Origin: Pseudomonas sp.
GTDB lineage: Bacteria; Pseudomonadota; Gammaproteobacteria; Pseudomonadales; Pseudomonadaceae
Direction: 5' to 3'
Assembly: GCA_033720015.1 (NCBI GenBank)
Contig: JAWWDH010000001.1
Location: forward strand, 38,097-102,096
Length of the DNA stretch: 64,000 bases
This document shows positions 3,952-62,248 of this stretch, in pieces. The position numbers and the translations under genes were made by a program. How positions within the stretch are numbered: position 1 is the first letter of the stretch; every line of letters begins with the position of its first letter. The notes below the pieces were generated by a model. The model was given only the letters and a program-made list of their open reading frames with translations. It was not told the DNA's origin and did no database searches.

Positions 3952-4692
3952 CTATTCCCGGTGTCCTCCATCGACCTTATCGACGTAGGCTTCAAAGAAC
4001 CAAACCGGGATATCATCAGTCAGATATTTGAGTCCCGTGCCGTCCGTAATCTCGGCCAACTCGACCGAGCTGGCCCCTGAGTTGTCGAAGATAAAGGCGC
4101 GATTGCTACATGCCACTGCCTCCGGCAACAACTCAAGCGACTTCGCATAGCGCGCCCGCACCGTGTCAGGCTCTACCTTGTGGCCACCGCCTTCGACACG
4201 GATTCTCACCCGGTCAACATTGATTTCGGGGTTTTCTGTAGAGACGAAGTAGAGGTAGGTGCGGTACCCAAGTTCTTGGGCCCTGCGCAAAATATCAATT
4301 TTGCTTTGGTGAGACATGACCGTTTCAAAGGTGAAACTTTCACCTCGGTCGAGTAATTGCTGGCGGATGAAATCAGCAATTACAGCTGCAAAGTAGGAGT
4401 CGACTTTCACAGACCTGTAGTCGATCTTAGAGCCCTCAACGCGCAGCAGTGCCGCTTCTTGAGTGCGCTCTTTCTTGATAAGCAACGGGTGCTTTGCGTG
4501 CAGCTCTGCGATCTGATCGGCAGTCGGGTCTATGCCGAATGCAGCCAGGTCGATAAAGCCGGTGGCTTTGGCTTGAGCTTCAAGCTCATCTGCATTCACA
4601 TAGGTTTTAATCTGCAGGATGTCTGCTAGTTCATCCTTGATCGTGCTTTTGCCTGACCCATTGGGGCCAGCGAACATCCGAAGTCTAGGCAC
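3952..4692 (-). CDS. Zeta-toxin-like / COG4185-type P-loop kinase-ATPase
   Basis: AGPNGSGKST Walker A; YVNADE; SFTFETVMSH; RVEGGGH; FIFDNS. Confidence 0.8.
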   Translation of the reverse strand: MPRLRMFAGPNGSGKSTIKDELADILQIKTYVNADELEAQAKATGFIDLAAFGIDPTADQIAELHAKHPLLIKKERTQEAALLRVEGSKIDYRSVKVDSYFAAVIADFIRQQLLDRGESFTFETVMSHQSKIDILRRAQELGYRTYLYFVSTENPEINVDRVRIRVEGGGHKVEPDTVRARYAKSLELLPEAVACSNRAFIFDNSGASSVELAEITDGTGLKYLTDDIPVWFFEAYVDKVDGGHRE

Positions 4693-5065: not shown

Positions 5066-5661
5066 TTATGTTTCACGAACGGGGAACCCCGCATCGGCCA
5101 TAGCGGCAAGGGCCTGATTGTCATCCACCGGTACTGCCCAGGCCTTCTCCCCGTTGACCCAGCGTGTCCCTGCAGCCTTCGCCACCTCGCGCTCTGCATA
5201 GGGCACCTTGAAGCAGATCAGCGGGCGGGCGGGGTCAGGTAGCCCAACTCGCGAGCCTTGGCCAGGGCCTTGTCATTGTCCTCGGCCACCCACCAGGAAT
5301 CCAGCAACTCTGACCATTTGGCTCCCAGGCGGCTGGCTTTGCGGTTTTCCTCGAACGGGACATGCAGCACCACTCTCCCAGCCAGGGGATCGAATGGTTG
5401 CTCCCCGCTCCACTCCGGCGGCAGGACCCAGCGCCACGTTTTGAAGGTGCCGGCCGAGCCAATGACGAATCGCTCATCCTTCACCTCGCCTGACTCGAAG
5501 TCGTAGACGGTGGCGACTACGGTCGGATTGCCAAAGTACGGCCCTGGGCCCTTGAGCTCGCCCACCTCGATCACTTTGGCGATGGTGGTGCCCCAGGTTG
5601 TGCGGCGCACCCAGAATCCCGGCCGGCGTCCGTGTTCGTCGTACATCTCGTAGATGTTCAA
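5066..5661 (-). pseudogene. Protein with two DUF5710-like repeats, interrupted by a single-base frameshift near 5222
   Basis: First repeat LHVPFEENRKASRLGAKWS; after the apparent stop at 5218 the shifted frame reads LICFKVPYAEREVAKAAGTRWVNGEKAWAV...ET* ending at 5066. Confidence 0.65.
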
Positions 5662-7073
5662 TTGGCTTGTTCCTCTGTTGTCCTCACCCGAACAACATCA
5701 TCGGCAAAGGTCAGGCTCAGTTCCCCGGCGGCTACGGCCTGGCCGGCGCTGGTGACGATATCGCCCTGTGCGTCACGCACCAGGGCAAAGCCCCGACCGA
5801 GCAACGCAAGCGGGTTGGTCTTTTCGTATAGCATGCTGGCCATCTCCAGTTGGCTGCGGTCACGCACTACCCGGGCCTGGCCGGCAGACTTCGCCCGCCC
5901 GCCGGCCAGCAGGATCTGCTGACGCTGGCCGGCACAGAACTGCCGACCCAGCATCCCCAGGTCAGCTGCACGCCGATCAAGCAGCAGGCGCTGGCCACTG
6001 AGTAGCCGCCCCACCGCGACATCCACCCGACCCCGAGCCTGCAACGCAATCTGCTGCTGCCGATGGGTCAAGCCCCTCACCAGCCGGGAAAACTCACCCC
6101 ACCGCCTCTCAAGCAACGGCCGCTCACCCGCTGCCAAGGACAGAATCTTGGCCTTCCCTGCCTGCAGCCCGGTACGAAGCCCCGTTGCCTCAGCTATCAG
6201 GCTGGTCTTGATGAACCCGATGACCTTGGAGGGGGTGTCGAACTTGCGGTGCGCCACCAGGTCAAGCAGGCACTCGTCGATCTCGTGGCCAATCCCGGTG
6301 TAGACCGGGATCGGTAGCCGGCATACCCAGGCCCCAAGGTTGCCGTCATTCAGGTGCGCCAGATCCGCCTTGGCCCCGCCGCCGCGGATGATGCACACCG
6401 CATCGTAAGGATCGCCCTGGTGACGCTCATGCACCGCCCGCATCGCCGTCCGAATTGACTCCGAGGTGTCTTTCCCCTGGAAGGTGGCCGAGAAGTAGTC
6501 GAAGCGACACACACCCGCGTCATCAAGCAGCTGGGCGTCGCGTTTGAAGTCCGCAAGACCGGCTGCCTCGTGGGGCGAGATCACCGCAATACGCCAGTGC
6601 CCACCAGGAGCAGGCAGCTTGCGCTGCAGCTCGAACCAACCCTTGCTTTTCAGGGAGTGAATTATCTCCTGCAGCTTGGCCTGCATGTCGCCCAGGGTGT
6701 AGCTCGGGTCAAGACCAGTGGCATTGAGCGAGAAGCCGTACTGAGGCGACAGCTCTGCCCTGACCTTGATCAGTACCCTCATGCCGGCCTCTGGGAGGCC
6801 GCCAGTGACGTTTTTCCACTCAGCCATCACCTTGCCCGCCAAATTGGCGAACATCGTCACCTTGGCCTTGGCTACCTCCTTACCGGCCTCAGACTCGAGG
6901 ATGTCCATGTAGACATGGCCGTTTGCCCGCAGCTTGAAGTCGGAAAGCTCGGCTATAACCCAGCAACTATCAGGCATCGCCAGCTTGATCGCCTTCGATA
7001 CCTGCTTGAGGTAGGCACTGAGCGTCAGGTGCTCGCTATTGGCCACCAGCTGCCCTGCGACGGCATTCATCAC
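5658..7073 (-). CDS. xseA: Exodeoxyribonuclease VII large subunit
   Basis: N-terminal OB fold (WVIAELSDF...NGHVY), IAVISP, CIIRGGG..DLAHLND, VYTGIGHEIDECLLDLVA, DTPS, C-terminal P..LL.RGFALV. Confidence 0.9.
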   Translation of the reverse strand: MMNAVAGQLVANSEHLTLSAYLKQVSKAIKLAMPDSCWVIAELSDFKLRANGHVYMDILESEAGKEVAKAKVTMFANLAGKVMAEWKNVTGGLPEAGMRVLIKVRAELSPQYGFSLNATGLDPSYTLGDMQAKLQEIIHSLKSKGWFELQRKLPAPGGHWRIAVISPHEAAGLADFKRDAQLLDDAGVCRFDYFSATFQGKDTSESIRTAMRAVHERHQGDPYDAVCIIRGGGAKADLAHLNDGNLGAWVCRLPIPVYTGIGHEIDECLLDLVAHRKFDTPSKVIGFIKTSLIAEATGLRTGLQAGKAKILSLAAGERPLLERRWGEFSRLVRGLTHRQQQIALQARGRVDVAVGRLLSGQRLLLDRRAADLGMLGRQFCAGQRQQILLAGGRAKSAGQARVVRDRSQLEMASMLYEKTNPLALLGRGFALVRDAQGDIVTSAGQAVAAGELSLTFADDVVRVRTTEEQAN

Positions 7074-11053: not shown

Positions 11054-12034
11054 ATGGCGAACTTTTTGGGGCTGGATATTGGCTACAGCAATGTGATTGG
11101 GGTGTTTGGCGATGGTGTAGATCAGTACGAAACCATTGTGCGGCCTTCACAGGCCGCCCCTCTGGACACGATTCCGGGCGATTCCGGGCTGCGGGCTGGC
11201 GAGGTGCTGGTTGAAGTTGACGGTGTGCAGTGGGTGGCCTTTGCGGCCCCTGGCCGCGTGCAGGAGGGCCGTGAGTTGCATCAGGACTATACCCAGTCGC
11301 CAGCATATAAGGCCCTATTCCGTGGTGCGCTGCTGCATGCTGCTGGTGATAGCGATGTAATTGATGTTCTGGTTACCGGATTGCCTGTTTCTCAGTCGCG
11401 GGACGATAAGTACGTTCAGGGTCTTATCGAGACAATGAAGGGGGCGCATCAAGTTACCCCCAAGCGATGCATCGAAGTGAAATCGGTTGTGGTTGTGGCT
11501 CAGCCAATTGGTACGCTGACCGATATTTATTGCTCATCTGAACATGCTGATGTTGTTGAAGAGTCGGTTTCGCTGATTATTGATCCGGGCTTCTTTAGCG
11601 TTGACTGGGTTCTGTTCGACCATAAAGAGCTAGTCGCACAATCAAGCTCCAGTAGCGTTAAGGCTATGAGCGTTCTGCTTCAGGCCTGCAATGAGGAAAT
11701 TGCTAAAGATCACGGTGGCATCCCTGGCGTTGAGAAGATTGAGCACGCCCTTCAGACTGGCAAGACATTTATTCTTATGTTTGGTCGCAAGGTAGAGCTT
11801 GCTGAATACATGAAGCGCGCGGCTGATCGTGTAGTGCCAGGGGTATTTACCGAAATCAAACAGACGCTACGCTTTCTCAAAGGGCGAGCCGTAGACTGCG
11901 TTATTCTTGGTGGTGGCGGTGCTAATGTTTATGAAGGCTATGCAAAGGTGGAATTTCCCGAGTCACTCGTTATCAAGCCTTCCGATAGCGTGAAGAGTAA
12001 TGCGGTTGGCTTTTACAATATCGCAGCCTCTTAA
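11054..12034 (+). CDS. parM: ParM/StbA actin-like partition ATPase (SrpM-like)
   Basis: LGLDIGYSN phosphate-1; LVTGLP; AQPIG; IIDPGFFSVD; LGGGGA. Confidence 0.9.
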   Translation: MANFLGLDIGYSNVIGVFGDGVDQYETIVRPSQAAPLDTIPGDSGLRAGEVLVEVDGVQWVAFAAPGRVQEGRELHQDYTQSPAYKALFRGALLHAAGDSDVIDVLVTGLPVSQSRDDKYVQGLIETMKGAHQVTPKRCIEVKSVVVVAQPIGTLTDIYCSSEHADVVEESVSLIIDPGFFSVDWVLFDHKELVAQSSSSSVKAMSVLLQACNEEIAKDHGGIPGVEKIEHALQTGKTFILMFGRKVELAEYMKRAADRVVPGVFTEIKQTLRFLKGRAVDCVILGGGGANVYEGYAKVEFPESLVIKPSDSVKSNAVGFYNIAAS

Positions 12035-23509: not shown

Positions 23510-24157
23510 CTAACTATCGCCCCTAGATCGCAGACGCTCGACATGACGCTGGGCCGCCCAGTACCCGCCTTTAACGCGCCTTCTTTTCAGCGCTGCACAG
23601 ATGTCGTCGACGTGCCGCCTGGTGAACACCGGAGCCTTGTAGCTCTGTATCTTCCGTACCACGCCCCAGATGCCATACACGCGCTCGGGGAGGCCGTAAG
23701 GAAAATCCGCATCGCCAGCCATCACCGCATAACTATGGATCTTCTGAGCATGGACGCCAGTAGCCTGCTGCACAGCCTTAACATGGGCGTAGTTCTGCAT
23801 TAGCGGGCTCTGCACCTTGTACTTGCGCCGGCCAACCAGCTGCACCCAGGTTTCAGGCTCAAGGGGGTCGACAAGCACCTTCCCCTTGAACGACTTCGTT
23901 TCAAGCACAAACAAACCAAACCTAGACACGACAATGTGGTCTACCTGGGTGCTCTCCCCCTTGGTCTTCCCACGGTAGATCGCATTGGGTAACACGCTGT
24001 ACTCGCTACTTAGGCATAGCCGCAGCATAAAGTTGACCTTGTATTCACCCCACCAGCCCCGATAGGTCGGCTTCTCCAGGAGCCTGGCGTGGATGAATCC
24101 CGCCAGGATTGCCATGCCGACTACAGGCGGCGCGTATAGAACAAAGAACTCAGTCAT
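23510..24157 (-). CDS. Membrane-anchored NERD-domain nuclease-related protein
   Basis: N-terminal TM; G..GE..V; QVDHIVVSRFGLFVLETKSFKG; SPLMQN..H. Confidence 0.85.
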   Translation of the reverse strand: MTEFFVLYAPPVVGMAILAGFIHARLLEKPTYRGWWGEYKVNFMLRLCLSSEYSVLPNAIYRGKTKGESTQVDHIVVSRFGLFVLETKSFKGKVLVDPLEPETWVQLVGRRKYKVQSPLMQNYAHVKAVQQATGVHAQKIHSYAVMAGDADFPYGLPERVYGIWGVVRKIQSYKAPVFTRRHVDDICAALKRRRVKGGYWAAQRHVERLRSRGDS

Positions 24158-24188
24158 AGCTCGCCGGCAAACCGGCCCCTCCTTCCGA

Positions 24189-25229
24189 TTAAAGTTTCGA
24201 GCAGCAGTCTGTCCAGCGCCACAGCATGTACATAGTGTCCACCTGGGTACCCGGAACATGGCGATTGGTTTTGCCGTCCCATTGGTAGGGATGCTCTCCA
24301 AGCCACATGCCTTTTTGAGTCATAGGCTTGGGCATGAACTGATTGAGCTTGTATTGGGACTTGGGAATAGTTGGGTAGAACGAGGCCCGGCAGATGTTCT
24401 CATCGCCCATGGTTCGCCGGGCAAGCCCACGACGATGCTGCTGGCTGAGTAGGCGAGCCGAAATCAGCGCTGTGGTACGGCTCATATCCGCTGCTGATGT
24501 ATGACCTGCGAGAGGGTAGATTCCGCCCCACGTTCCAGAACACCACCACAACGTCTCAAGCGGTTCCTTGCCAGCGGCAAGTAGCCCCGATTCGGCCGCG
24601 CAAGCTGCCCGGGCTATCGGATTCGCCACCGCAGCAGATTCGGGATGCTGGAAGAACGCCAGGGTGGCGTTACCCCAGGTCGGGTCAATCTCAGTGAATG
24701 AGATAATGTCCACGTCCAGATAGCCGTCCGGGTTGCACTTGGTTGGCGTATACAGGTCGAGGATCTGCAGCAGCGGAAAGGCATAGTAGTGCGTGTGATA
24801 GAACGAACCCTGATTGATCTCGTTGGAAGGCAAATGGCCCTGCTTCAGTCGACCGTATGTGCGTTTAGAGCCAAGCGGTAGCGTCACACCACCGAGAGTA
24901 GGCGAACACCCAGGCTTGCGCACATTCTCAATGATCCGGGCCGGTTCCCACATCGCAGTAACGATGCCCGGCTTATAGATGTTCGAACTCCCCTCTTGGC
25001 AAATGCAGAAGACCTTCTTCGAGGCTTTTTCGGGGGCTTTGCCAGGGGTGATCTGCACACCAGATATCCTGATCGGGAATAAGCATGCCCAACAAATATC
25101 CGTGAACAACTTCGGGCCGAAGATGCCCGAGTCTTCACACAACGGATCAGCGTATGCCCTTCCTGGAAGGGAAAGCAGCGCAGCCAGCATGATGGCCGTA
25201 GCTGCTATGAGAGCCCTATAGCGCTTCAT
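24189..25229 (-). CDS. traU: Pilus assembly protein TraU
   Basis: TDICWACLFPIRI; MWEPARIIE; FYHTHYYAFPL; EIDPTW; terminal DCC. Confidence 0.95.
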   Translation of the reverse strand: MKRYRALIAATAIMLAALLSLPGRAYADPLCEDSGIFGPKLFTDICWACLFPIRISGVQITPGKAPEKASKKVFCICQEGSSNIYKPGIVTAMWEPARIIENVRKPGCSPTLGGVTLPLGSKRTYGRLKQGHLPSNEINQGSFYHTHYYAFPLLQILDLYTPTKCNPDGYLDVDIISFTEIDPTWGNATLAFFQHPESAAVANPIARAACAAESGLLAAGKEPLETLWWCSGTWGGIYPLAGHTSAADMSRTTALISARLLSQQHRRGLARRTMGDENICRASFYPTIPKSQYKLNQFMPKPMTQKGMWLGEHPYQWDGKTNRHVPGTQVDTMYMLWRWTDCCSKL

Positions 25230-30302: not shown

Positions 30303-30647
30303 TTACATGCCTACAGGCAGGGCATTCAACACTTCGTAGACAGCGGCGGCAGCCGGCACGGTAGCAGTCATGATCGACTCGATAACATCCGGCGCAGCAT
30401 ACAGACCGACACCACCGCCTACGCCGGTCACGAACGGCATCAGCGACTGGCGCAGAACGCCGGCGCCGATGCCGGTCAGGATCATCAGACCAATCAGGAT
30501 GCGGCCCAGGGTGCCTTGCATCCAGTCAGTCAGGGTTATCCAGACGCTATCGAAGGTGTCACCACCGGTACCGGCCAGGGCGGTACCAGCGATCATCATT
30601 GCAACGGCCAGGGCGAGTGTGTTCAGAGTGGTTTTGCTTAATTGCAT
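30303..30647 (-). CDS. traA: Conjugative pilin TraA
   Basis: Signal peptide; GTGGDTFDSVWITLTDWMQGTLGR; two hydrophobic helices. Confidence 0.9.
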   Translation of the reverse strand: MQLSKTTLNTLALAVAMMIAGTALAGTGGDTFDSVWITLTDWMQGTLGRILIGLMILTGIGAGVLRQSLMPFVTGVGGGVGLYAAPDVIESIMTATVPAAAAVYEVLNALPVGM

Positions 30648-30749: not shown

Positions 30750-30760
30750 GTTTAGAAATA

Positions 30761-32956
30761 GGGTTTGGAGAGCAGTGGAACCAAAAACCAACGTAAGGCG
30801 TAGTTAGAGTTCGCCGTTGCCAAGAACCGGGCGGTTATCCAGACGATGAACTCCGTTGCCCTTCATAAATTGTCCGCCCGATGCCGCTAAGGCATCTGCA
30901 GACGCTGTCTAGTAGGATTGCGCCCACCAGAAGCGGTTCTGTCTCCGGGGTCACGCCAAGCGCGCTGAGTGATTTCTGTATCTCTGTCTTCGAGGGCAGA
31001 TGGGCATCCCCTAAACGCAGGCCATAGGCGATGTGTAACGGCCCCATGATCCTGTAGGCAGCTTCCTTGTCGCAGTAACTTTGAAGGACCCGCTCTAGCA
31101 ACTTTAAACCCCCAAACTTCTCCTTCGGATCAAGGGGGAGGAGTGTTCGGAGCAGGCTAATGTCGATAGAGTCAGCGGTTAGCCTGGCTATATCTTTGGC
31201 AAGTGCGAGGATGCCGTTCTCTTTCAACGCCCGGAATCGGTGGCATTGCCCCAGGATTTGCTCGGCATGGTCATGGGGTTTGAAGAGCGGACCACCGAAT
31301 GATTCATCGAAGAGTGCGTTCAGCTTTTCAATTAGAACCTGGAAATCAACCTCGGGCGCCTTGGTGTGGGCAGGTTCGCACCTCTGTTGGGAGTCAAGCA
31401 GTTCTCGCGATGGTGGACCGTCGGGAGATATGTTGAATCCATGCCAGATTTGCTGCTGCCAGAGAGGCAGACGAGCGACGTCGTAGGCGTAGACGTTGAT
31501 TCGACAGTTTTCATTGATTCCGAAGTGTACGTAGTAGTCTGGTGAGCAGCTGATAGAGCCCGTTTCGGCGGTGTACCAGCTTAGCGAGGCGCCGCGGTAC
31601 GCAAGCAGCGCCTCGATGACTTCTGCTTTGAACCAGAGATACTTACCTACGTCTTCATTGTTGAGCTTGCTGGCCGGCGCCTTCTCACCAGCTGCGCCGA
31701 CCGAATAGTAGAGCTGTTCGGCAGGGGTATCCCTGCGAACACGTTCGCTTGCAGCGGCAGGCTCCACCCACTCATCGCGCCACAGCTCTCCCTCTACTCG
31801 CTCAACCGTGGGGCCGCCACGATCAAACTGGTACGACTCGAAATCAGTGTTCGAGTCGTCTTCTGGCCCAAATTCAGGTACGTCCTCGCCGTGGTCAACA
31901 TCCGTACGCCACGCCTTCATCACAGCAACGCGGCCAGGAATTGAGCCGTCTTCAGTGATTGCGAACGTGCGCAGCCCAAATCTTTCGGTCGCAGTCTTCT
32001 CAGTCGAGTTTTTGCCATACCAGGGAAGGTGGGATGTGTCTGCCATTATCTGGAGTCGCTGCCGGTATTGAACAAGGCGCAGGGCCAGCTTTCGCGCGCA
32101 GAGGTAGTCGCGAAGGTGTTCGGCACGGATTTCGATTGCAACGATACTCCCGCTTGGATCTCGTCGTTGCCGGATGACCTCGATATAGCCTTCATCGACA
32201 CGAAACCAGGAATCCCCTTCGCGCAAGAGGCCGAGCGCGATGACCAGGTCCTGATTAACGTGCCACTCGGTCTCGTGGGCTCCGTTCAGCCGATTCAAGA
32301 GCACAAGCTCAATGCCAACCGGGTCTTCTTTGTCGTAGTGCCAGTACTGGTCTGCGGGCTTGTAGCGGCCATCTTCGAAGGCATAGGGGCCGGGAACGTG
32401 GATCAGACCAATATCGTTCCAGCTCAGCGTGTCTCCGATCTCTCGTCGGTCCTGGCGAACGGCCAGTGATCCTACACACAGGGACTCCTCGAAATACCCA
32501 GGCTTCCCTTTGGTGCCACCGGTTGCTAGCTGCTCAGATTGCCGAAGTGGTATCCAGATGCCTGAGGAAAGACGCCGCCGACGGATCTCGGGCATCTGGA
32601 ACCAATCGGCTTGAAATATCTCTGACATAGGTGCGCCCCGGTGCTGTCCTTGTGGCTTTCGAGCCTACATTACCGGGGCATAAAATACCCCGCCTAGTCG
32701 GAGTTGGAACGGAACAGAAAGTGCATTTAAGCCCAGCGCCTGCCCGCAAACCCTTGTGGAGTCTGGTGAGTTCGGGGAAACCATCGTTTTGCCGAACCGA
32801 AACAGTCACAGCGTTCGGGGGCAGCGCGAGGCGCTGATAGCGGCCCAGAAAACTCGTTCGACAAAACAAAGTTCTGAAAACCGCCCATGCTCACGGCAGA
32901 GCTGAACTCTAATCTCGCCTTACGTTGGTTTTTGGTTCCACTGCTCCCCAAACCCC
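30761..32956. mobile_element. Non-autonomous Tn3-family element (mobile insertion cassette), 2196 bp, 5-bp target duplication AAATA
   Basis: IR-R 32919-32956 GGGGTTTGGGGAGCAGTGGAACCAAAAACCAACGTAAG (38 bp); IR-L 30761-30797 is the same minus one terminal G with one substitution; AAATA at 30756-30760 and 32957-32961; no transposase or resolvase inside. Confidence 0.9.
30835..32628 (-). CDS. Passenger protein, 597 aa, with a C-terminal helical HEPN-like RxxxxH motif
   Basis: IMGPLHIAYGLRLGDAH in an alpha-helical C-terminus; sole gene of the Tn3 cassette. Confidence 0.6.
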   Translation of the reverse strand: MSEIFQADWFQMPEIRRRRLSSGIWIPLRQSEQLATGGTKGKPGYFEESLCVGSLAVRQDRREIGDTLSWNDIGLIHVPGPYAFEDGRYKPADQYWHYDKEDPVGIELVLLNRLNGAHETEWHVNQDLVIALGLLREGDSWFRVDEGYIEVIRQRRDPSGSIVAIEIRAEHLRDYLCARKLALRLVQYRQRLQIMADTSHLPWYGKNSTEKTATERFGLRTFAITEDGSIPGRVAVMKAWRTDVDHGEDVPEFGPEDDSNTDFESYQFDRGGPTVERVEGELWRDEWVEPAAASERVRRDTPAEQLYYSVGAAGEKAPASKLNNEDVGKYLWFKAEVIEALLAYRGASLSWYTAETGSISCSPDYYVHFGINENCRINVYAYDVARLPLWQQQIWHGFNISPDGPPSRELLDSQQRCEPAHTKAPEVDFQVLIEKLNALFDESFGGPLFKPHDHAEQILGQCHRFRALKENGILALAKDIARLTADSIDISLLRTLLPLDPKEKFGGLKLLERVLQSYCDKEAAYRIMGPLHIAYGLRLGDAHLPSKTEIQKSLSALGVTPETEPLLVGAILLDSVCRCLSGIGRTIYEGQRSSSSG

Positions 32957-32985
32957 AAATAAGAGAGGGGGCCGAAGCCCCCTCT
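32957..32985 (-). terminator. Intrinsic terminator of the large surface-protein gene
   Basis: AGAGGGGGC-TTCG-GCCCCCTCT then CTTATTT. Confidence 0.8.
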
Positions 32986-32999
32986 GGATGTCGCTGCTC

Positions 33000-35900
33000 T
33001 TAATAGTTGGAGACTGGCTGGGACTCAGCCCCAGAGTCATCGACCCCTACCAGGGTAATGACCGGCTCCCCGTTCGGGTAACGCCACATGGGAACCGAAA
33101 TCGAGCTGGAGGTGATGGCCTGCTGCACACCGTCGACGAACCAGAGGTAGCTAGCCAAACGGCCGTCTTCGTCTGTACAGCCCGAGCGGGCCAGCCAGCT
33201 GGTACGCCCTTCGATGACCTCGACGGTACAGGTCGGCGGCATGTTTTCCTCAACCTGGATGCTGACCTCACCATTGGCCGTATGGCCCATCTGCGAGGCG
33301 ATATCGAGGCGAACGGTATGGGTGCCCTTATCCAGGGTGGCCCTGCCGTAGTCGCCTGAGCTTTCCAGCGGCTCGCCGTTGAGGGTGTACTGACGCGACT
33401 CAATACGATCCTTCGGATGGCCACCGGTGATGCTCGGGCGAATCAGTACACCAAGGGGCGCACGGTTGGCCGGGTTGTCACCACTCCACGAAAGGGTCAC
33501 CTCGTAGGGAATCGGCTCCATGAAGGTCAACTCAGTCTGGGCATAGGAATAATTCCCCCGGGCGTCGCTGACGTGAACGCCGAAGGTATAAGTTCCTGCC
33601 TCGATGATCCTGAGCACGCGGCTGGTCTGGCTCGTATCCTTGACAACCTCCACACCGGGGTACGGTGGGATATCCCAGTCCATCTCCAGCCCCTCGAACT
33701 CACGGAACAGGCCCAAAGAGCGCACCTGCATAGTCAGGTCGGCCGGCGAATACGCAGCAGAGGTTTTCGCCTGGATTGACCACTCAGGCCAGTCATACGA
33801 CCAGAACAGCAGGCGGTGCTGGGTCAGGCCCTTACCGCCGTTGTCCTCATAGCCGTTAATCCACGCCTCGAAGCCGATATAGCTCTTCTCCTCGGTGCTG
33901 TCCTCCATGGTTGGGGTGTAGGCCACCTCCCGCTCATGCACGATCTCGCCGTTGGGCAGGATGAAATAGCCGTCCATGGTCAAATCCATTTTCGGGTACG
34001 GCATCATCAAGTTGGCCTTCCAGATCGCTTCTTGGCCCACCTCTGGCCGGCGCGGGCCGATCAGCTGGACACGCGGCGGCCGGACCTTGCGGAAGGCCAC
34101 GCCAGCACGGAGATTGCGATAGACGCGCTTGTCATCTGGCGAATCGGCAAACTTCACCCGAGCCATCAGGTACACGCGCTCAGCCGAATCACGGGTCAGT
34201 TCGTAGCTTCCGGTGCCTTCTACCCAGGTCTGGCCGCGGTCTTCCGACCACTCGACTACCATGCCGGCCGTATCGAGGCCTTCGCCCTGGATGTCAGTCA
34301 GTTGGAAGCGGCCAATGTCGCTGATGAAGACGTTCGCCGGCCCCTTCAGGCGAGCTACCGGCACCTCGTAGGCAATCACCTCAATCTGCGGGGTGAAAGA
34401 CTTCTCCCCAGAATGACGGTTCGTGATCTCGGCCCGCAGGTGGTAGGTGCCCTTGGCAAATACCATGGTCAGGCGCTGCTGCAGCTGGCCAGTGTTTTCG
34501 ACCGTCTCCCAGGTAGCACCACCGTCTTTGCTCCGCTCCCACCGCACGTCGCCAATATCACTCGATTCCATACGGTTGACGGTCATGGCGTAGAAAGTGC
34601 TGCGCAGAGGCGCAGGACCGATCACGCGCAGGGCCTGGATCATCCCGTCGAGTGGATCGCCATTGAGGATGGTCAGGGTCATCGGGTAAGCGGTCTTGCG
34701 CACCGACTCATACCCAGGCACCGGGGAGCGAACACGGGCCTCTGCTACGACTCGAACGATCTTGTTCGTCAGCAAGGCCAGATCCATTTCGAACTCTGCT
34801 ACTCCATCGTCATTGATCGGCTCCCAGTCCGAAAGCGGCTGATAGTTCATGCCCGATGTGCTCATCAGCAAGCGGATATCCCAATCGCCCATGCTCGAGA
34901 GCCTGTGACCATCCTCGGGGAAGTTGGTATCCAGAATCTGCACATTGATCGGCAGGGACTGGGTATCCAGCACGCGGCGCTCATCGTTGAGGATGACTGG
35001 TAGGATCTTGTCGTGTGGCACCGCCAGCAGTTGAGCTTCCTTGTGAGTTTCCAGAGCAGGCAACTGCGTGTAGCGGGCCGAGAAACGATAAGGCGTCAGG
35101 CTCCACAGTGGCTGCTCGTCTCCCTCGATGTAACGGGTAATCCGCTGGTTGCGACCATAACTCGGGATGGTGGAATACTCCCCTTCCTCGAGCCCATGGC
35201 TGTCTTTCACGTCGATGTTTGCTGGCAGGGCGTTGACCGTCACGCTACCGACATAACCGCCGAGTTGCGATACCGCGTAGATGTCGTCACCCACCAGATT
35301 GGAGGTGGGTAGCTCGATCTCAATGGCCGGCGGCTCGATAACCTCGATGTCATGGCTGCCATGGGTCACGTCGATCTCTTCGCCGCTCGGAGTGAAGACG
35401 GACACCTTCCAGGTGATTGATTGTTCACCCAGAACCAAGGCCGACCCCACAGCTTGCGGGACATGCCAAGTGGTGGATTGGGCCAAACCCTCTGGCAGGT
35501 TCGTCCAACGAATGAAGCACATCGGCTTGCTCTGCCACTGCTTGGCGACATTGCGGGCTATCGTCTCGGTCGTTGTTGCATCGCAGGACGCTCCGCTTTG
35601 CTGGCGAAGTACCAGGGCCAGATTCTGCACCGACTGGTAGGTCTGGGCCGGAGCAGGCTGCAACGCAAAGCTCACCGCATCAATCACCGGCAGAACAGTG
35701 AGCTCCTGGTCGAAGTCCGCTATCCAGTGCTTCCCACCTTGAGGGTCGAACACATAGGCCTTGGCCCGTACCGGGTGCTTGCCAGTGGTGCGCCCATAGG
35801 CCTCCATGGCGAGCGAGGTGCTGTTGCTGGTGTTGCGCCACTCCTCGGGCTTCAGATCCCACTCAATCAAGCAAGCAGGGTCTTGGAGCACGTTTTTCGG

Positions 35901-38900
35901 CTTCACCATGCCCTCGCTGGTCAGAACCGCACAGGCATTGCCAGCAGATTCGAAACGAATTTCCGCGGGCTCGATGGCCTGACGAACCTCCCAGCGAGAA
36001 GAGGAGAGTTGGCCTTTCGGAGCCCAGGCATGCACCGGCACCGGGTAAACCGGACCGCTCATGTCGGCACGGGACAGGTAGACCTGGGCCATGCCGTCGA
36101 CACCAACATTCAGACCAGCTAGGCGTGCTTCAAGGTAGCCGGCGGTACGTTTGGTTGGGGTCAAGCGCATGCCGATCTCGGGGGCTAGATCTCGGCTTTC
36201 CAGTTTCACTCCCACAGGGGAGTCTGGGGTAACCACTGCGATGATGTCATCACCTAGCGCCTCTACCACGGCTGCGTCGGTGAGCTGTAGTGCGTAGCTG
36301 CCATCGCGGCGCGTCATAAAGGTCGTCACCGCGGGAACAGACGCTTCTGCACCGCTTGGCTGAACCGCCCTACCCTCGAACATGCCCCAGGCAGACTCGA
36401 ATTTCAGGAGGATATTTTTCTCCAAGGTGAGGCCATCTTGATCCGTCGCCTTGATGCGAACCGAAGTGTCGGCGTCATCGTCGGTTCTGATCGTCAGGGT
36501 ATTGCCGTCGATAGTCGCGCTGCCATGGGCCGGCTGGCCGATAACGCTGAGCTGGTGGCTACCCCAAGTATTCGGGTCAACAACCTGCAGCTCGGCGGTA
36601 CCACCGATGCCCGCATACAGGGTCACCACGCCAGGCACTATGTCGATCGGGGCATAGTTGAACTTGGCCACCTCCACGCGCACTTCACCTTCGACACTCG
36701 CGCCGGCCTTGTCAGTGGCGCGGATGATGAAGGCGTCATTACCGAAGAACTGCGGATATGGGGTGTACTCCAGCATGCCGTGGACAAGCTGGGCCGACCC
36801 TTTAGCAGGCTGCGAGACGATCTCGAAGGTGTGCTCATCACCATAAGGAAGGTCTGCATCGACTACCCAGGGCTCAACATGGTCGCTGGCCATCCCCTCC
36901 TTGGTTGGGATCGTAGCCCCGGTTGCGTCCGGCGTATCATTGACATAGGTGACCTCGAGGGTGATCGGCTCAACCTCCGACCAAGCGCCCTCAGAGTCCA
37001 TCGCTCGGTAGGTAAGCGTGAGCTGTCCATTCCAGTCCTCGGTAGGGGTAATAGTCAGTTTGTCACCTTGAAGGGTGTACTTCCCTTCTTCCTCCTCAAG
37101 CGTGCCTATGATCTCAAACTCGAACGGAGCTGCACTGTCCACGTCTGCGGCAGTGAGCGTTACGACCAATTCTGTGTCCTCCGGCATCGTCAGGGTGAGC
37201 GGTGACACCACGGGCGCATCGTTGACCGGATTCACTGTGATTGTGATGGTCGCGGTATTGGAGTTGGCATTCTTCGAGTCGGTGGCCCGATAGGTCAGCG
37301 TGGTCGTGCCATTCCAGTCCTTCACTGGGGTGAAGGTCAGCTTGTTGCCGGCGATGCTCGCCGTGCCATGGGCGGCGTTCGGCGCAGTGACGATGGCCCA
37401 GGTATGGCTGTCACCCTCGAACTGCAGATCCACGTCAGTGACCTGCAGTTCGAGGGTGCCCACGGTGTCTTCATCGATCACCAGGGTTGCATTGCTTACC
37501 GAGGGCACATCGTTGACCGGGGTAACGGTCAACGTCACGGTCGCGGTGTTCGAGTTGGCCGTGCCGTCATTGGCCCGGTAGGTGAAGCTGGTGGTGCCGT
37601 TCCAGTTCGGCTTGGGCGTGAAGGTGGCCTTGTTGCCACTGATCGTCACGGTGCCGTGGGCGCTATTCGGGGCGGTCACAACACCATAAGTCAGGCTGTC
37701 GCTGTCCACGTCGCTGGCAACCAGGGTCACCGTGGCGGCGGTATCTTCTGCAACCGTCAGGCTGCCATTGCTGGCAACTGGTGCATCGTTGACCGGATTC
37801 ACTGTGATGGTGATGGTCGCGGTGTTGGAGTTCACATTCTTCGAGTCGGAGGCCCGATAGGTCAGCGTGGTCGTGCCATTCCAGTCCTTCACTGGGGTGA
37901 AGGTCAGCTTGTTGCCGGCGATGCTCACCGTGCCGTGGGCGGCGTTAGGCGCGGTGATGATGCTCCAGGTATGGCTGTCGCCCTCGAACTGTAGATCCAC
38001 GTCCGTAACCTGCAGGGTCAGGGTGCCAACCGTGTCTTCGTTGACCGTCAACGTCGCGTTGCTCACCGAGGGCGCATCGTTCACCGGGGTGACGGTTACG
38101 CTGATCGTCGCGGTGTTGGAATTGGCCGTTCCATCATTGGCTCTGTAGGTGAAGCTGGTCGTGCCGTTCCAGTTGGGCTTGGGCGTGAAGGTGGCTTTGT
38201 TACCGCTGATCGTCACGGTGCCGTGGGCGCTATTCGGCGCAGTCACAACGCCATAGGTCAGGCTGTCGCCATCCACGTCGCTGGCAACCAGGGTCACCGT
38301 TCCGGCGGTGTCTTCAATAACCGTCAAGGTGCCATTGCTTGCAACTGGGACGGTATTATTTGGAACGCTTTCGCAAAGGGGGCCATAGGATACGCTGCCT
38401 GCTGTCCATGCCGCACCACTACCCATAGAGTATAATTTGCCATTCCTATAGATTGTAAAATTCAAGTAAGAGCCATGAACGTCCTCTTTGTACACTCCAC
38501 CTACATAGGTCTTTGTTGAAAATTTCACTCCGTCAAAATGACCAAAAACACCCCCGTGTTTTCCTGGCTCAGATTTACAATTTAAAATCCAATCGGATCT
38601 GTCAATAGATGATTCAACACAAAGCTCGTATTCATTAATGGTCAGTCCATACATGGTGGCTGATTTTACAAACTTCCCCCGTGAGAATTTTGCCACTGGT
38701 GTAGACATCGACTTCAATACCATGCTGGAGCCTTGATCATATACTTTGGAACTGACATAGTTGTCAGTATCCATGATTTGTTGCCCTGCATAAACTATAT
38801 GATTGCCAGGAACCATAACGCCAGAACTCCAAACCAACATATTTGCACCGTTATACGAGCAAACAAATGCTGCCATTGAGCTTCCGGAAAAACCAAATAA

Positions 38901-38936
38901 CAAGAAGAACACAAGAAATATCTTAGGCGCCTTCAT
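33000..38936 (-). CDS. Large secreted Ig-like (Big_9/cadherin-like) repeat protein, 1978 aa
   Basis: Signal peptide; five ~95-aa repeats (VTPVNDAP..S..TL.V.ED...DVD.D.LTY...P...WNGTTTFTYRA.D); PKD-like C-terminal modules. Confidence 0.9.
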   Translation of the reverse strand: MKAPKIFLVFFLLFGFSGSSMAAFVCSYNGANMLVWSSGVMVPGNHIVYAGQQIMDTDNYVSSKVYDQGSSMVLKSMSTPVAKFSRGKFVKSATMYGLTINEYELCVESSIDRSDWILNCKSEPGKHGGVFGHFDGVKFSTKTYVGGVYKEDVHGSYLNFTIYRNGKLYSMGSGAAWTAGSVSYGPLCESVPNNTVPVASNGTLTVIEDTAGTVTLVASDVDGDSLTYGVVTAPNSAHGTVTISGNKATFTPKPNWNGTTSFTYRANDGTANSNTATISVTVTPVNDAPSVSNATLTVNEDTVGTLTLQVTDVDLQFEGDSHTWSIITAPNAAHGTVSIAGNKLTFTPVKDWNGTTTLTYRASDSKNVNSNTATITITVNPVNDAPVASNGSLTVAEDTAATVTLVASDVDSDSLTYGVVTAPNSAHGTVTISGNKATFTPKPNWNGTTSFTYRANDGTANSNTATVTLTVTPVNDVPSVSNATLVIDEDTVGTLELQVTDVDLQFEGDSHTWAIVTAPNAAHGTASIAGNKLTFTPVKDWNGTTTLTYRATDSKNANSNTATITITVNPVNDAPVVSPLTLTMPEDTELVVTLTAADVDSAAPFEFEIIGTLEEEEGKYTLQGDKLTITPTEDWNGQLTLTYRAMDSEGAWSEVEPITLEVTYVNDTPDATGATIPTKEGMASDHVEPWVVDADLPYGDEHTFEIVSQPAKGSAQLVHGMLEYTPYPQFFGNDAFIIRATDKAGASVEGEVRVEVAKFNYAPIDIVPGVVTLYAGIGGTAELQVVDPNTWGSHQLSVIGQPAHGSATIDGNTLTIRTDDDADTSVRIKATDQDGLTLEKNILLKFESAWGMFEGRAVQPSGAEASVPAVTTFMTRRDGSYALQLTDAAVVEALGDDIIAVVTPDSPVGVKLESRDLAPEIGMRLTPTKRTAGYLEARLAGLNVGVDGMAQVYLSRADMSGPVYPVPVHAWAPKGQLSSSRWEVRQAIEPAEIRFESAGNACAVLTSEGMVKPKNVLQDPACLIEWDLKPEEWRNTSNSTSLAMEAYGRTTGKHPVRAKAYVFDPQGGKHWIADFDQELTVLPVIDAVSFALQPAPAQTYQSVQNLALVLRQQSGASCDATTTETIARNVAKQWQSKPMCFIRWTNLPEGLAQSTTWHVPQAVGSALVLGEQSITWKVSVFTPSGEEIDVTHGSHDIEVIEPPAIEIELPTSNLVGDDIYAVSQLGGYVGSVTVNALPANIDVKDSHGLEEGEYSTIPSYGRNQRITRYIEGDEQPLWSLTPYRFSARYTQLPALETHKEAQLLAVPHDKILPVILNDERRVLDTQSLPINVQILDTNFPEDGHRLSSMGDWDIRLLMSTSGMNYQPLSDWEPINDDGVAEFEMDLALLTNKIVRVVAEARVRSPVPGYESVRKTAYPMTLTILNGDPLDGMIQALRVIGPAPLRSTFYAMTVNRMESSDIGDVRWERSKDGGATWETVENTGQLQQRLTMVFAKGTYHLRAEITNRHSGEKSFTPQIEVIAYEVPVARLKGPANVFISDIGRFQLTDIQGEGLDTAGMVVEWSEDRGQTWVEGTGSYELTRDSAERVYLMARVKFADSPDDKRVYRNLRAGVAFRKVRPPRVQLIGPRRPEVGQEAIWKANLMMPYPKMDLTMDGYFILPNGEIVHEREVAYTPTMEDSTEEKSYIGFEAWINGYEDNGGKGLTQHRLLFWSYDWPEWSIQAKTSAAYSPADLTMQVRSLGLFREFEGLEMDWDIPPYPGVEVVKDTSQTSRVLRIIEAGTYTFGVHVSDARGNYSYAQTELTFMEPIPYEVTLSWSGDNPANRAPLGVLIRPSITGGHPKDRIESRQYTLNGEPLESSGDYGRATLDKGTHTVRLDIASQMGHTANGEVSIQVEENMPPTCTVEVIEGRTSWLARSGCTDEDGRLASYLWFVDGVQQAITSSSISVPMWRYPNGEPVITLVGVDDSGAESQPVSNY
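37216..38349. repeat. Tandem 567-bp near-identical duplication (two Ig domains per unit)
   Basis: Matching sequence at 37321/37888, 37216/37783 and 37763/38330. Confidence 0.9.
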
Positions 38937-57515: not shown

Positions 57516-58739
57516 TTGGCCATTGCTAGCCAAGAACATCGATGTACCAGGGGGTACGCCGAGTTGGACGAACAAGGAAAGCTCAAACCCGTGAATGGGC
57601 GCTACAACACCAACGACGAAACGAAACGAATCGTCTGGACTCAGGCTGCCGGCCACTGCGAGCTATGCGGCACCGATCTCACGTTCGACTATCGCGCAGG
57701 CAAGCCGATGAGGTGGGGTGAGGTTGCCCACATCCTACCGGCCAGCCCTCAAGGCCCGCGAGGGCGTAAGGCTCATGACGAAGCAAAGGCGCAGGGTCTC
57801 ACGAACGACTGCGCCAACCTCATGCTCTTGTGTCCGGGCTGCCACGACAAGATTGATCGTGACGCGGATGGCTACCCGGAAAATGACTTGAGTGGCCTGC
57901 ACCAGGCCTACCTCGAACGCATCCGCCTCGCGGCTACAACGCCCGATGGCGGCCGGGCAATTCCCGTAATCGTTCAGAGCCAGCACTTCGCGACGAGCAA
58001 TGACATTTCCGTTCGCGATCTGCTGACTGCAATGTCTTCCGAGGGGCTAACGGCCTTCGACCATCCCATCAAGATCACCTTCCCGCCTCCCGGACCTCGT
58101 GGCAGGGATGCGTTCTATTGGCAGAAAATCAAGGACGACATCCAGCACGACCTGGAGCAGCAACTGAAACGCCGTGGGGGTACTTATGGCGACGCGCCTG
58201 CGCTGGCTGTCGTGGGTGTGGCTGATATTCCAGCGCTAATGCTATTGGGACAGGCTATAGGCGACCGCTCTAAACGCCTGCTCTTTTCCTTCAATCGCGA
58301 GCATCAACTACGTTGGCCTAATCAGTCAGCTGAGCCGCCGGAGTTTTTGTTCACCCCCCGGGCGGTTGGGGATGGCCCGCTTGCACTGGTACTGTCTATC
58401 TCCGCTCAGGTCCCGCTTCGCGACGTCGAGGAGGCACTACCTGGCGCACGTATCGCAGAGCTAAGCATCCCAGAACCCAGTTACGCGATGGTTCAGAACC
58501 GTCGCGTGATTCACGCTTTTCGCGACGCCCTACAAATGCACTTGAGCCGACTTGAGGCCGCGACGGCGGACACAATTCATGTGTTCGCGGCGATTCCAGC
58601 TGCTTTGGCGATTGAGTTCGGTGCCTTGCTTACCACGCAACACCAGCATCCTTACCTGATTTTCGATCGAGATAAAGACAACCAAAACAGGTTCACGCCA
58701 ACACTACAGTTGGGCCTTCAGGCCCAGGAGGTCCGTTGA
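57516..58739 (+). CDS. cap5: CBASS effector, HNH endonuclease-SAVED (Cap5-type)
   Basis: AAGHCELCG; GEVAHI; NLMLLCPGCHDKID; SAVED-like HVFAAIPAALAIEFG; start may be further downstream. Confidence 0.9.
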   Translation: MAIASQEHRCTRGYAELDEQGKLKPVNGRYNTNDETKRIVWTQAAGHCELCGTDLTFDYRAGKPMRWGEVAHILPASPQGPRGRKAHDEAKAQGLTNDCANLMLLCPGCHDKIDRDADGYPENDLSGLHQAYLERIRLAATTPDGGRAIPVIVQSQHFATSNDISVRDLLTAMSSEGLTAFDHPIKITFPPPGPRGRDAFYWQKIKDDIQHDLEQQLKRRGGTYGDAPALAVVGVADIPALMLLGQAIGDRSKRLLFSFNREHQLRWPNQSAEPPEFLFTPRAVGDGPLALVLSISAQVPLRDVEEALPGARIAELSIPEPSYAMVQNRRVIHAFRDALQMHLSRLEAATADTIHVFAAIPAALAIEFGALLTTQHQHPYLIFDRDKDNQNRFTPTLQLGLQAQEVR

Positions 58740-59992
58740 TGTCCATGAGCAATGAACAGACCAAGCGAGGGAGTTGGGAACACTTTCTGCTCCGCGCAGC
58801 AAGGGAGATCTCACTGTCGGAAGCGCAGTACGAGAAGATCAACGATCGATACTCCCAGTTGGAGAAGATCCTTTCTGCATCCGACAATCCGCTACTGGCG
58901 GAGGCGCATATTTTTGTTCAGGGCTCCATGCGCCTGAAAACGACGATCAAACCCGTTTCTGGCGCTCCCGAAGATTTGGACACCATCGATGCGGACGCCA
59001 TCATTTGGCTTCCACATGCCCAGGGGGCGGGAGCTCAAGAAGTCCTGGATGCTATCGAGGAGCGATTCAGGGCTGGTAGCCGTGTACAGGAGGAAATCAA
59101 GCCGCTGCGTCGCGGCATTCGGATCGTCTATGCCGACGAAAACCCCGGATTCCATATCGATGTCACGCCAGCGCGTGCCATCAATGGGAACTCTCAAGGC
59201 AATGGCGAAGGTAAGCTGGAAGTTCCAGACCGGGAGACAGGATGGAAGGCGAGCAGCCCCATCCCCTACTCCAATTGGCTGCAGGTCGCTTCAACCCAGA
59301 CGATTTCCTTGGAGGAGCATCTAGCTGTCGCGAAAAGTCAGCGCACCGTTGATGCCGCCACTCAGGATCCGTTGCCTCAGTATGAGGAGTACCTCGATCA
59401 AGACCCACTTCGGGCAACGATCAAGCTGCTGAAGCGGCATCGTGATGAGTGGGCCATCAGAACGAAGAATGAGGACTGCCGACCTATTTCGGCAGTCATC
59501 ACAACACTCGCCACTCACGCCTACCTTGACGTGGCGAAAGAGTCTCAGTCGAAACCGCTAAGGCCGCTGGATGCGATCCTCGAGATCGTCCGGAGGATGC
59601 CGGATCACGTCAAACACCGGGGGAACGAATGCTTGGTCTGCAACCCAGCAGACAGCGGTGAAAACTTCGCTGAGAAATGGAATAGACCGAGTGAGGGGCA
59701 TCGCTACCGCCGGGCTTTCCAAGACTGGCACTCGAATGCCAGTGCATCTGTGTCATTGGGGCTTGAGAGCTTCGATTCCGCGGAGGCTTTTGCCAAGGCA
59801 GTTAAGGAAAACTTTGGCATGAGCCCAGCGTTCATCTCGGCAGTGAACAGCGAAATTCCGTCCAACTGGACGATGCCTGGCCGCTCGGACGGAACCACCC
59901 GAAACTCTACGTCAATGGGCGCACTGTTTGGAGGTGTCAGTGGGACAGCGAGTTCTCAGGAGGACGTGAAGCCGGTTGAGCGTCTTGGTTGA
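58736..59992 (+). CDS. CBASS CD-NTase (SMODS nucleotidyltransferase)
   Basis: QGSMRLKTTIKP; DTIDAD; FHIDVTPA; IKLLKRHRD; ENFAEKW. Confidence 0.93.
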   Translation: MMSMSNEQTKRGSWEHFLLRAAREISLSEAQYEKINDRYSQLEKILSASDNPLLAEAHIFVQGSMRLKTTIKPVSGAPEDLDTIDADAIIWLPHAQGAGAQEVLDAIEERFRAGSRVQEEIKPLRRGIRIVYADENPGFHIDVTPARAINGNSQGNGEGKLEVPDRETGWKASSPIPYSNWLQVASTQTISLEEHLAVAKSQRTVDAATQDPLPQYEEYLDQDPLRATIKLLKRHRDEWAIRTKNEDCRPISAVITTLATHAYLDVAKESQSKPLRPLDAILEIVRRMPDHVKHRGNECLVCNPADSGENFAEKWNRPSEGHRYRRAFQDWHSNASASVSLGLESFDSAEAFAKAVKENFGMSPAFISAVNSEIPSNWTMPGRSDGTTRNSTSMGALFGGVSGTASSQEDVKPVERLG

Positions 59993-61760: not shown

Positions 61761-62248
61761 CGGCAATTGCCTGGCGATGGGGCTGGCCTGGGGTGGACAC
61801 TCATCTGTTGGTATCGCAGGACGTCGCGAGCCTGCTAGAGCGCTATCGCCAACGGAAGTTTGATGTGGAGCGTGGGGGACAGCTATTTGTAGACCCTTCT
61901 AGCTCAACCGGATTGGTGCTTGCCTTGGCCACGCCCCCTCATGGAGACGATCGGGCTGGAAGGACTTGGCTGGAATTGAATGCCCGCCGCTGCCGGGATG
62001 AGATAGAGCGTGCCAACGCTGAAGGGCTCCGCCTGGTGGGTTACTGGCATACACATCCGCAAAGCATTCCCATGATCTCCCCGACCGATATCGGGAGTTT
62101 TTCCAGGTTTGCTGCGCGCTACACACGGGATCTGCCACATCCAATGGCAATCATCGTGGGCAACGCCAACAGCCCTGAAGGCATAAAGGCTTGGTCTTTC
62201 AGGGAGGGGCGCTATGTTGAAGCTGTCAGGGATAACAGGCCAGATTAG
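61757..62248 (+). CDS. cap3: CBASS Cap3 (JAB/MPN+ isopeptidase)
   Basis: ERGGQL; GYWHTHPQ..P..SPTD; ATGA overlap with cap2. Confidence 0.92.
   Translation: MTAIAWRWGWPGVDTHLLVSQDVASLLERYRQRKFDVERGGQLFVDPSSSTGLVLALATPPHGDDRAGRTWLELNARRCRDEIERANAEGLRLVGYWHTHPQSIPMISPTDIGSFSRFAARYTRDLPHPMAIIVGNANSPEGIKAWSFREGRYVEAVRDNRPD

Follow-up and report, generated by a model that had tools for sequence, protein, structure and literature searches.

A TIME-derived Tn3-type cassette ahead of traA in a Pseudomonas conjugative element carries a single candidate immunity gene of an unnamed family

The sequence analyzed here is a 64,000-nucleotide stretch of Pseudomonas sp. DNA (contig JAWWDH010000001.1, positions 38,097 to 102,096), referred to below as the window. 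Within it lies a cassette of about 2.2 kb (30761-32956) in which one gene, P0001, stands between two inverted terminal repeats of the Tn3 family. The features of the locus are collected in Table 1. P0001 had been picked out in an earlier sequence-only reading of the window, which described it as a 597-residue passenger and the only cargo of a mobile cassette. The coordinates given there for the open reading frame (ORF) are exact, the ORF lies on the minus strand, and the description of the cassette was borne out by the two Tn3-family repeats, a duplication of AAATA and the absence of any other gene between them.

Table 1. Coordinates of the cassette, its passenger gene and further features of the window.
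Feature	Positions	Strand	Basis or detail
Target-site duplication copy 1, AAATA	30756-30760	.	Sequence read
Cassette left end: 38-nt Tn3-family terminal inverted repeat (30761-30798) and about 45 nt TIME-like	30761-30843	+	Inverted repeat, repeat pattern, TIME1 alignment
P0001 ORF, only passenger gene of the cassette	30835-32628	minus	597 aa, ATG to stop (ORF read and translation)
P0001 N-domain, about residues 1-400, beta-rich	31429-32628	minus	AlphaFold2 full-length model
P0001 C-domain, about residues 400-597, helical	30838-31431	minus	AlphaFold2 full-length and C-domain models
R538-L-G-D-A-H543 codons, invariant R/H pair	31000-31017	minus	Translation and 197-sequence alignment
Cassette right end: near-complete TIME-like element, upstream of the ORF	32708-32956	minus	Megablast, TIME1 alignment
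Target-site duplication copy 2, AAATA	32957-32961	.	In U-tract of upstream terminator
Intrinsic terminator hairpin of Ig-like gene	32964-32985	minus	9-bp stem, 7 GC pairs, then CTTATTT
traA pilin gene, probable ATG 30647, AGGAG ribosome-binding site	30303-30647	minus	TraA_gammapb 2e-31, TrbC/VirB2
Ig-repeat (Big_9/cadherin-like) protein, 1978 aa, upstream tra-operon neighbor	33000-38936	minus	
Type II CBASS: HNH-SAVED effector (Cap5-like), SMODS/CD-NTase, ThiF E1/E2 (Cap2), JAB (Cap3)	57516-62248	+	
Zeta-toxin-like gene on element	3952-4692	minus	
Exonuclease VII large-subunit-like gene on element	5658-7073	minus	
ParM-type actin-like partition gene on element	11054-12034	+	

The inverted repeats that bracket P0001 are 83 nt long (30761-30843 and 32873-32955) and 78% complementary. 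In each, the outermost 38-39 nt form a terminal inverted repeat (IR) of the Tn3 family, GGGGTTTGGGGAGCAGTGGAACCAAAAACCAACGTAAGG, of the GGGG...ACGTAAG type, and the two IRs are located at 30760/1-30798 and 32918-32956. The left IR matches the IR pattern with 2 mismatches, and the pattern has 2 matches in the window and no further ones across the 3.97-Mb assembly, compared to 0 matches expected. The right IR is identical at 39/39 positions to TIME1 of pZM1P1. Pseudomonas harbors non-autonomous elements of the Tn3 family named TIME, TIME-RES and TIME-COMP (Szuplewska et al. 2014, PMC4133298), and a 5-bp target duplication is a signature of the Tn3 family and of TIMEs (PMC4133298). With megablast, the right-hand 250 bp or so of the cassette (query 3309-3559) showed about 81% identity to sequences of many Pseudomonas plasmids (hits H1-H20), among them unannotated stretches, TIMEs and the ends of Tn3-family elements; the plasmids include pZM1P1 and the LM8 plasmid. 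This arm aligns to nearly the whole of a TIME, minus the outer tip of the second IR, and the left arm retains about 83 nt. No transposase was found inside the cassette, where P0001 is the sole long ORF and has no Pfam match (no DDE_Tnp_Tn3). The cassette is therefore a non-autonomous, TIME-derived Tn3-type element with a single passenger. A second copy is absent from the 3.97-Mb assembly, no identical cassette junction was found in metagenomes, and the search for the cassette elsewhere returned one 75% relative, which lacks TIME sequence. Neither TIME sequence nor a Tn3 IR was found near about 90 loci that carry homologues of P0001.

The final three codons and the stop codon of P0001 (30835-30843) fall within the TIME-like left arm. 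Because of this position, the capture event may have given P0001 a new C-terminal tail in place of the native one. The C-terminal tail is also the most variable part of the protein family.

The insertion point of the cassette is the terminator T-tract of a gene for an Ig-like repeat protein, and 113 nt separate the other end of the cassette from traA, which lies downstream. The operon around it reads TraK, TraB, TraV, the Ig-like gene, the cassette, TraA, DsbC, TraC, an S26 peptidase, TrbC, TraU and a gene with a NERD (nuclease-related) domain. Other genes of the window encode TraI_2 (MOBH), TraD, DUF4400, MobI, AcaB, TraF/H/G and bet/exo. Judged by this gene content, the host is an IncC/SXT-like (MOBH, F-type) conjugative element. 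The Pseudomonas aeruginosa plasmid pF061_1 provides the empty site: its Ig-like gene is followed by a 131-bp gap and traA, no cassette is present, and the joined flanks of the window align to it at both ends. Since the same gene order occurs there with an empty site, the comparison shows that the cassette was inserted between the terminator of the Ig-like gene and traA.

P0001 belongs to a family that has gone without a name. It had no match in Pfam, NCBIfam (June 2026) or PADLOC-DB 2.0 (E<=1 for Pfam and PADLOC). When 84 diverse members were scanned against Pfam at E<=10, no family recurred, and among the matches listed none was shared by more than 2 members. A comparison of the family profile with PDB sequences returned noise only. 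A word-index search found 839 homologues among the 8000 candidates scored, an exhaustive HMMER search gave 734 clusters at 50% identity (247 at E<=1e-30), and a scan in which each species was represented by one genome identified 266 carriers. These carriers come from more than 10 phyla and include an archaeon, with about 40% identity to P0001. The best 80 of them comprise Alpha-, Beta-, Gamma-, Delta- and Epsilonproteobacteria, together with Nitrospira, Acidobacteriota, Actinomycetota, Chloroflexota, Gemmatimonadota, Firmicutes, Bacteroidota, Ignavibacteria, Verrucomicrobiota and a Methanoperedens archaeon. Such a wide range of taxa at this level of identity is a signature of horizontal transfer. 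The archaeal homologue, which is full-length and 41% identical, lies on a contig of a Candidatus Methanoperedens metagenome-assembled genome (L053), and it reflects either transfer between domains or a binning error. No homologue was found in 50,697 phage records, and 14 of 72,556 plasmid records carry one. Every named member of the family is annotated as "hypothetical protein", and no paper mentions the homologue accessions that were tried in the literature search.

The sequence-only reading had described a helical C-terminus behind a domain of about 400 residues that it did not recognize, and this division was confirmed. AlphaFold2 modeled full-length P0001 with high confidence from a 114-sequence alignment (predicted local distance difference test, pLDDT, 93.9; predicted template modeling score 0.83), and the C-domain by itself gave a pLDDT of 93.3. 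In the full-length model, residues 1 to about 400 are beta-rich, and residues from about 405 to 597, some 190 in all, form nine helices. When the C-domain by itself served as the query, every protein returned had the same architecture of about 590 residues or was a fragment of such a protein. As far as these sequences tell, the two-domain architecture is fixed, and the C-domain never occurs with another N-domain. Domain shuffling was considered and rejected on the same result, and internal duplication of the N-domain modules was not significant. No Pfam domain was found in three longer variants, P0262, P0139 and P0165. P0262 (1232 aa) is the one protein that contains only the part of the family corresponding to residues 300-580 or so, that is, the last beta module and the helical domain, after an unrelated N-terminus of 940 residues in which no Pfam domain was found. 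Either a genuine fusion or an artefact of gene calling could account for it.

Next, the motif that had drawn attention to P0001 was examined. The sequence-only reading had taken an R-X4-H motif in the C-terminus as the signature of HEPN RNases. The motif is present as RLGDAH (residues 538-543) at the end of IMGPLHIAYGLRLGDAH (residues 527-543). As a bare pattern it is uninformative: Rx4H occurs 4 times in P0001, and 70% of sequence shuffles give at least one, so its presence is at the level of chance. What exceeds chance is its conservation. In an alignment of 197 homologues with identities to P0001 down to 28%, R538 and H543 were unchanged in 197/197. The remaining three Rx4H pairs showed no conservation in the homologues. 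Conservation of the pair, the lack of which the sequence-only reading had named as evidence against itself, was thus found throughout. The only other strictly invariant columns are E409, E426 and R464, and all five residues fall within the C-domain. D174, R191, D127, K478, Q414, S294 and D541 are conserved in at least 97% of the sequences, with D541 kept in 191/197.

An invariant Arg/His pair in a helical domain is a feature of HEPN proteins (R-x(4-6)-H), and the idea that the C-domain is a genuine but very divergent HEPN RNase was weighed as an explanation. Its R538-x4-H543 residues would form a composite site on dimerization, and RNA cleavage would abort infection. The motif lies about two-thirds of the way along the helical domain, as in HepT, the genomic context resembles that of defence genes, and two HEPN toxin structures (7ae8_B and 7ae6_A) were among the Foldseek matches of the C-domain. 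These matches stood at ranks 20 and 23 with E 1.1-1.5, template modeling (TM) scores of 0.41-0.47 and a root-mean-square deviation of about 12 Å, however, and ranked below vinculin-tail bundles. Their scores are no better than those of vinculin-tail or cytokine bundles, which are unrelated helical folds. Cas13, Csm6, RnlA and KEN were absent from the Foldseek top 50. No HEPN family was among the Pfam matches listed for the 84 members, and the profile search of the PDB with the family found no HEPN protein. We also assembled a HepT/DUF86 alignment of more than 100 real sequences from plasmids and metagenomes, starting from plasmid genes detected by tblastn and adding their homologues, and compared it by hhalign to four cuts of the family alignment; the probability was 0.04-0.11%, and the motifs were not aligned.

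The motif itself also differs from that of HEPN proteins. A polar residue (N/D/H) reportedly follows the HEPN Arg directly in most cases. In the P0001 family, position 539 is Leu in 141 of the 197 sequences (72%), Gln in 15, His in 10, Ile in 10 and Gly in 7. The canonical HEPN motif lies near the start of the fourth helix, whereas RLGDAH occupies the C-terminal end of a 22-residue helix (521-542 by DSSP of the model) and the loop that follows. The invariant E409, E426 and R464 are foreign to the HEPN signature. The Leu after the Arg, the absence of Pfam HEPN families, the hhalign result of about 0.1% and fold matches on a par with unrelated helical bundles are the reasons why the P0001 family cannot be filed as HEPN. 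The assignment made in the sequence-only reading is not supported, and we regard a divergent HEPN RNase as improbable. Among the checks that the sequence-only reading had proposed, the PADLOC search gave no model that matches P0001, and the structure is confidently predicted (pLDDT 93-94) with no Foldseek match at E<=1e-3 and HEPN proteins only at E>1.

The genomic surroundings of the homologues were then considered. No conserved partner gene was found, as the commonest co-occurring neighbor family was present in 7/80 loci, and the gene would therefore act alone. The 125 immediate neighbors include 4-5 type IIG restriction-modification/MmeI genes, 3-4 type I methylases, 3 Fic/SoFic, 2 RT-TIR and 2 PDC-S04 genes, along with IS110 and Tn3 transposases. 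ResIII/DEAD helicases, resolvases, T5orf172 and a Schlafen-like helicase are found in the next shell. One homologue, on metagenome contig k141_50195, is cargo of a Tn7-like transposon (TnsB-like, TniQ, TnsD) at glmS, where it sits with a Bub (ubiquitin-like) system and an ABC-3C (CTD10/DUF2326) system. Another shares an island with three integrases and with MmeI, a DEAD helicase, T5orf172, ArdC, a QueC-like gene and mer genes, and on a Pseudomonas plasmid a third is accompanied in its island by genes for a restriction endonuclease, FRG, DUF2513 and DUF2971. Further homologues were found in islands bounded by integrases. These observations support the view that P0001 represents a horizontally mobile accessory gene that often stands beside known defence genes. 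The context is what would be expected of a defence gene, and this evidence is circumstantial.

Taken together, we favor the reading that P0001 is the captured passenger of a TIME cassette and a candidate single-protein immunity enzyme with its active site in the C-domain, to which we give slightly less than an even chance. P0001 was captured between Tn3-family ends of the TIME type, giving the 2.2-kb cassette, which transposed, presumably with a transposase supplied in trans, into the gap between terminator and promoter before traA. The protein would most likely be an immunity enzyme of the abortive-infection type that acts singly, with the beta-rich N-domain as a sensor or regulator. E409, E426, R464, R538 and H543, together with K478 and D541, would make up the active site, which is placed in the C-domain because all the invariant residues fall there. 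To judge from the residues' identities, such a set could be typical of metal-independent phosphodiester cleavage by RNase-like Glu/Arg/His chemistry. At best, P0001 would work "like" a HEPN effector, in that a helical Arg/His acid-base site (with Glu/Glu/Arg/Lys) acting on a phosphodiester would fit the data. An immunity function of the family, irrespective of its mechanism, seems about an even proposition or marginally better. The fullest version of the proposal is more tentative and somewhat doubtful. It holds that the family is an unrecognized single-protein system against phages or mobile elements, with new sensor and effector folds and a non-HEPN, metal-independent nuclease-like site (E409/E426/R464/K478/R538/D541/H543), which has spread through more than 10 bacterial phyla and archaea and is found here as a Tn3-mobilizable cassette.

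Several observations weigh against an immunity enzyme with this active site. No fold match in the Foldseek comparison with the PDB backs any nuclease class, and the chemistry is guessed from residue identities alone. None of the defence hidden Markov models (HMMs) of PADLOC-DB 2.0 matches P0001 (0 families at E<=1). Defence-type genes make up about 10% of the 125 immediate neighbors by a hand count that had no matched control set. The second shell of neighbors consists mostly of unrelated genes, and several homologues stand alone among core or housekeeping genes.

The alternative that survives best is that the family does not serve immunity at all. P0001 would then be an accessory enzyme or a selfish gene (island addiction or toxin-like stabilization, anti-defence or establishment, a niche metabolic or repair role) that hitch-hikes where new genes land. 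This would fit the many homologue neighborhoods that have no recognizable defence genes, the homologue that adjoins the anti-restriction gene ardC and a mer operon, the location of P0001 inside a transfer operon, reading towards traA, and the lack of a defence HMM match. Known defence genes recur beside homologues in unrelated taxa, however, and no conserved partner or pathway context was found. The absence of the gene from phages and its rarity on plasmids (14/72,556) argue against a general anti-defence or transfer function. The related conjugation operon of pF061_1 lacks P0001, and thus P0001 is not a component of transfer. We consider a function outside immunity unlikely, while according it more weight than either of the other two alternatives.

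Another possible explanation is that the effector lies in the N-domain, as a degenerate PD-(D/E)xK (Cap4-like) core at about residues 120-195 (D127, D139, E150/E166, K/R168, D174), with the C-domain regulatory or ligand-binding. At E<=1e-3, Foldseek returned nothing from the PDB or from BFVD for the full model, and nothing from the PDB for the C-domain. The best match of the full-length model was Avs3 (8dgc_A/B; E 8e-3 to 2e-2, probability 0.98-0.99, 224 columns, TM 0.18, identity 12%), the only PDB match with a high Foldseek probability. The match vanishes with the C-domain alone and therefore concerns the N-domain. The non-helical parts of Avs3 include a Cap4 nuclease effector, residues 126-195 of the P0001 model follow the order alpha-beta-beta-beta-beta-alpha-beta, which is compatible with the alpha-beta-beta-beta-alpha-beta core of PD-(D/E)xK nucleases, and 98% of the 197 homologues have K or R at position 168, with D174 kept in 99.5% and D127 in 98%. 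The TM score and identity of this match are low, however, and Foldseek does not report which region of Avs3 is aligned, so the match is a lead only. A nuclease in the N-domain is the least probable of the explanations considered, given that no CBASS Cap4 or other PD-(D/E)xK structure was in the Foldseek top 50, that D139 (84%), E150 (59%) and E166 (82%) are less conserved than the C-domain residues and form no canonical (D/E)xK, and that no Pfam nuclease family was matched.

The host element has further features of interest. The sequence-only reading had reported a cyclic oligonucleotide-based antiphage signaling system (CBASS) on the element that carries P0001, and a type II operon is indeed present, and complete, at 57516-62248. 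It had also reported a STAND NTPase, which could not be confirmed: none was found among the window ORFs scanned, and all ORFs of more than 400 aa are assigned to conjugation or CBASS. In the window as in pF061_1 (L101:9431-14815), traV and traA are separated by a gene for an Ig-repeat protein of about 1800-2000 aa, and this protein is therefore a conserved part of this lineage of conjugation operons and not local cargo. In F-type systems, traU is usually followed by traN. In the window, the NERD gene comes right after traU (23510-24301, minus strand), and the same is seen in pF061_1 (L101:2045-2770), so that the arrangement is conserved and no accident of the window element.

The P0001 finding is a sound candidate rather than a discovery, and many such candidates exist. 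By sequence and predicted structure, the family is large, widespread and unnamed, with no similarity to a described family or solved fold in the searches run here. If P0001 is an immunity enzyme, it would add a defence family that was missed by Pfam, NCBIfam 2026 and PADLOC. Its confidently predicted structure has no solved or viral counterpart, and the small, clear set of invariant residues provides targets for mutation. TIME-type elements have so far been discussed mainly as vehicles of resolvases or resistance genes, and here one carries a single candidate defence gene. Its position in the leader of the pilin gene of a conjugative element suggests a route by which single-gene systems could be loaded onto plasmids and integrative and conjugative elements (ICEs). 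If P0001 gives no protection, a mis-annotation has still been corrected, as a conserved Rx4H alone is insufficient to call a HEPN protein.

Compared to the HEPN RNases (HepT/DUF86 toxins, AbiD/F, Cas13, Csm6), the P0001 family shares a conserved R-x4-H in an all-helical domain and the situation of a solitary gene amid defence genes, and metal-independent RNA cleavage would be a plausible chemistry for it. It differs in having no profile or significant fold similarity, a hydrophobic residue after the Arg, the motif at the end of a long helix, the additional invariant or conserved E409, E426, R464 and K478, and a C-domain of about 190 residues in nine helices instead of a compact bundle of four to five. 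Avs3 (PDB 8DGC), an antiviral STAND protein with a Cap4 nuclease effector, is the best, though weak, structural match of the P0001 N-domain, and both are proteins found in a defence context. P0001 has no NTPase domain, the similarity is low (TM 0.18, identity 12%), and no further Cap4 structures were matched.

SXT/R391 ICEs and IncC plasmids carry defence cargo in variable regions. The host in the window resembles them in being MOBH and F-type (TraI_2, MobI, AcaB, bet/exo, traLEKBVA-dsbC-traC...) and in carrying a CBASS operon, and it differs in that P0001 came by Tn3-type transposition upstream of traA and not by exchange at a hotspot. The cassette resembles TIMEs in its IR, identical to that of TIME1 at 39/39 positions, in the 5-bp duplication of an AT-rich target, in the lack of a transposase and in the approximately 250 bp of TIME core at one end. 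In contrast to them, it has only one near-complete TIME, which lacks the outer tip of the second IR, and about 83 nt at the other end. Its passenger is one 597-aa gene of unassigned role in place of resolvase or resistance genes, and a TIME arm provides the stop codon of that gene.

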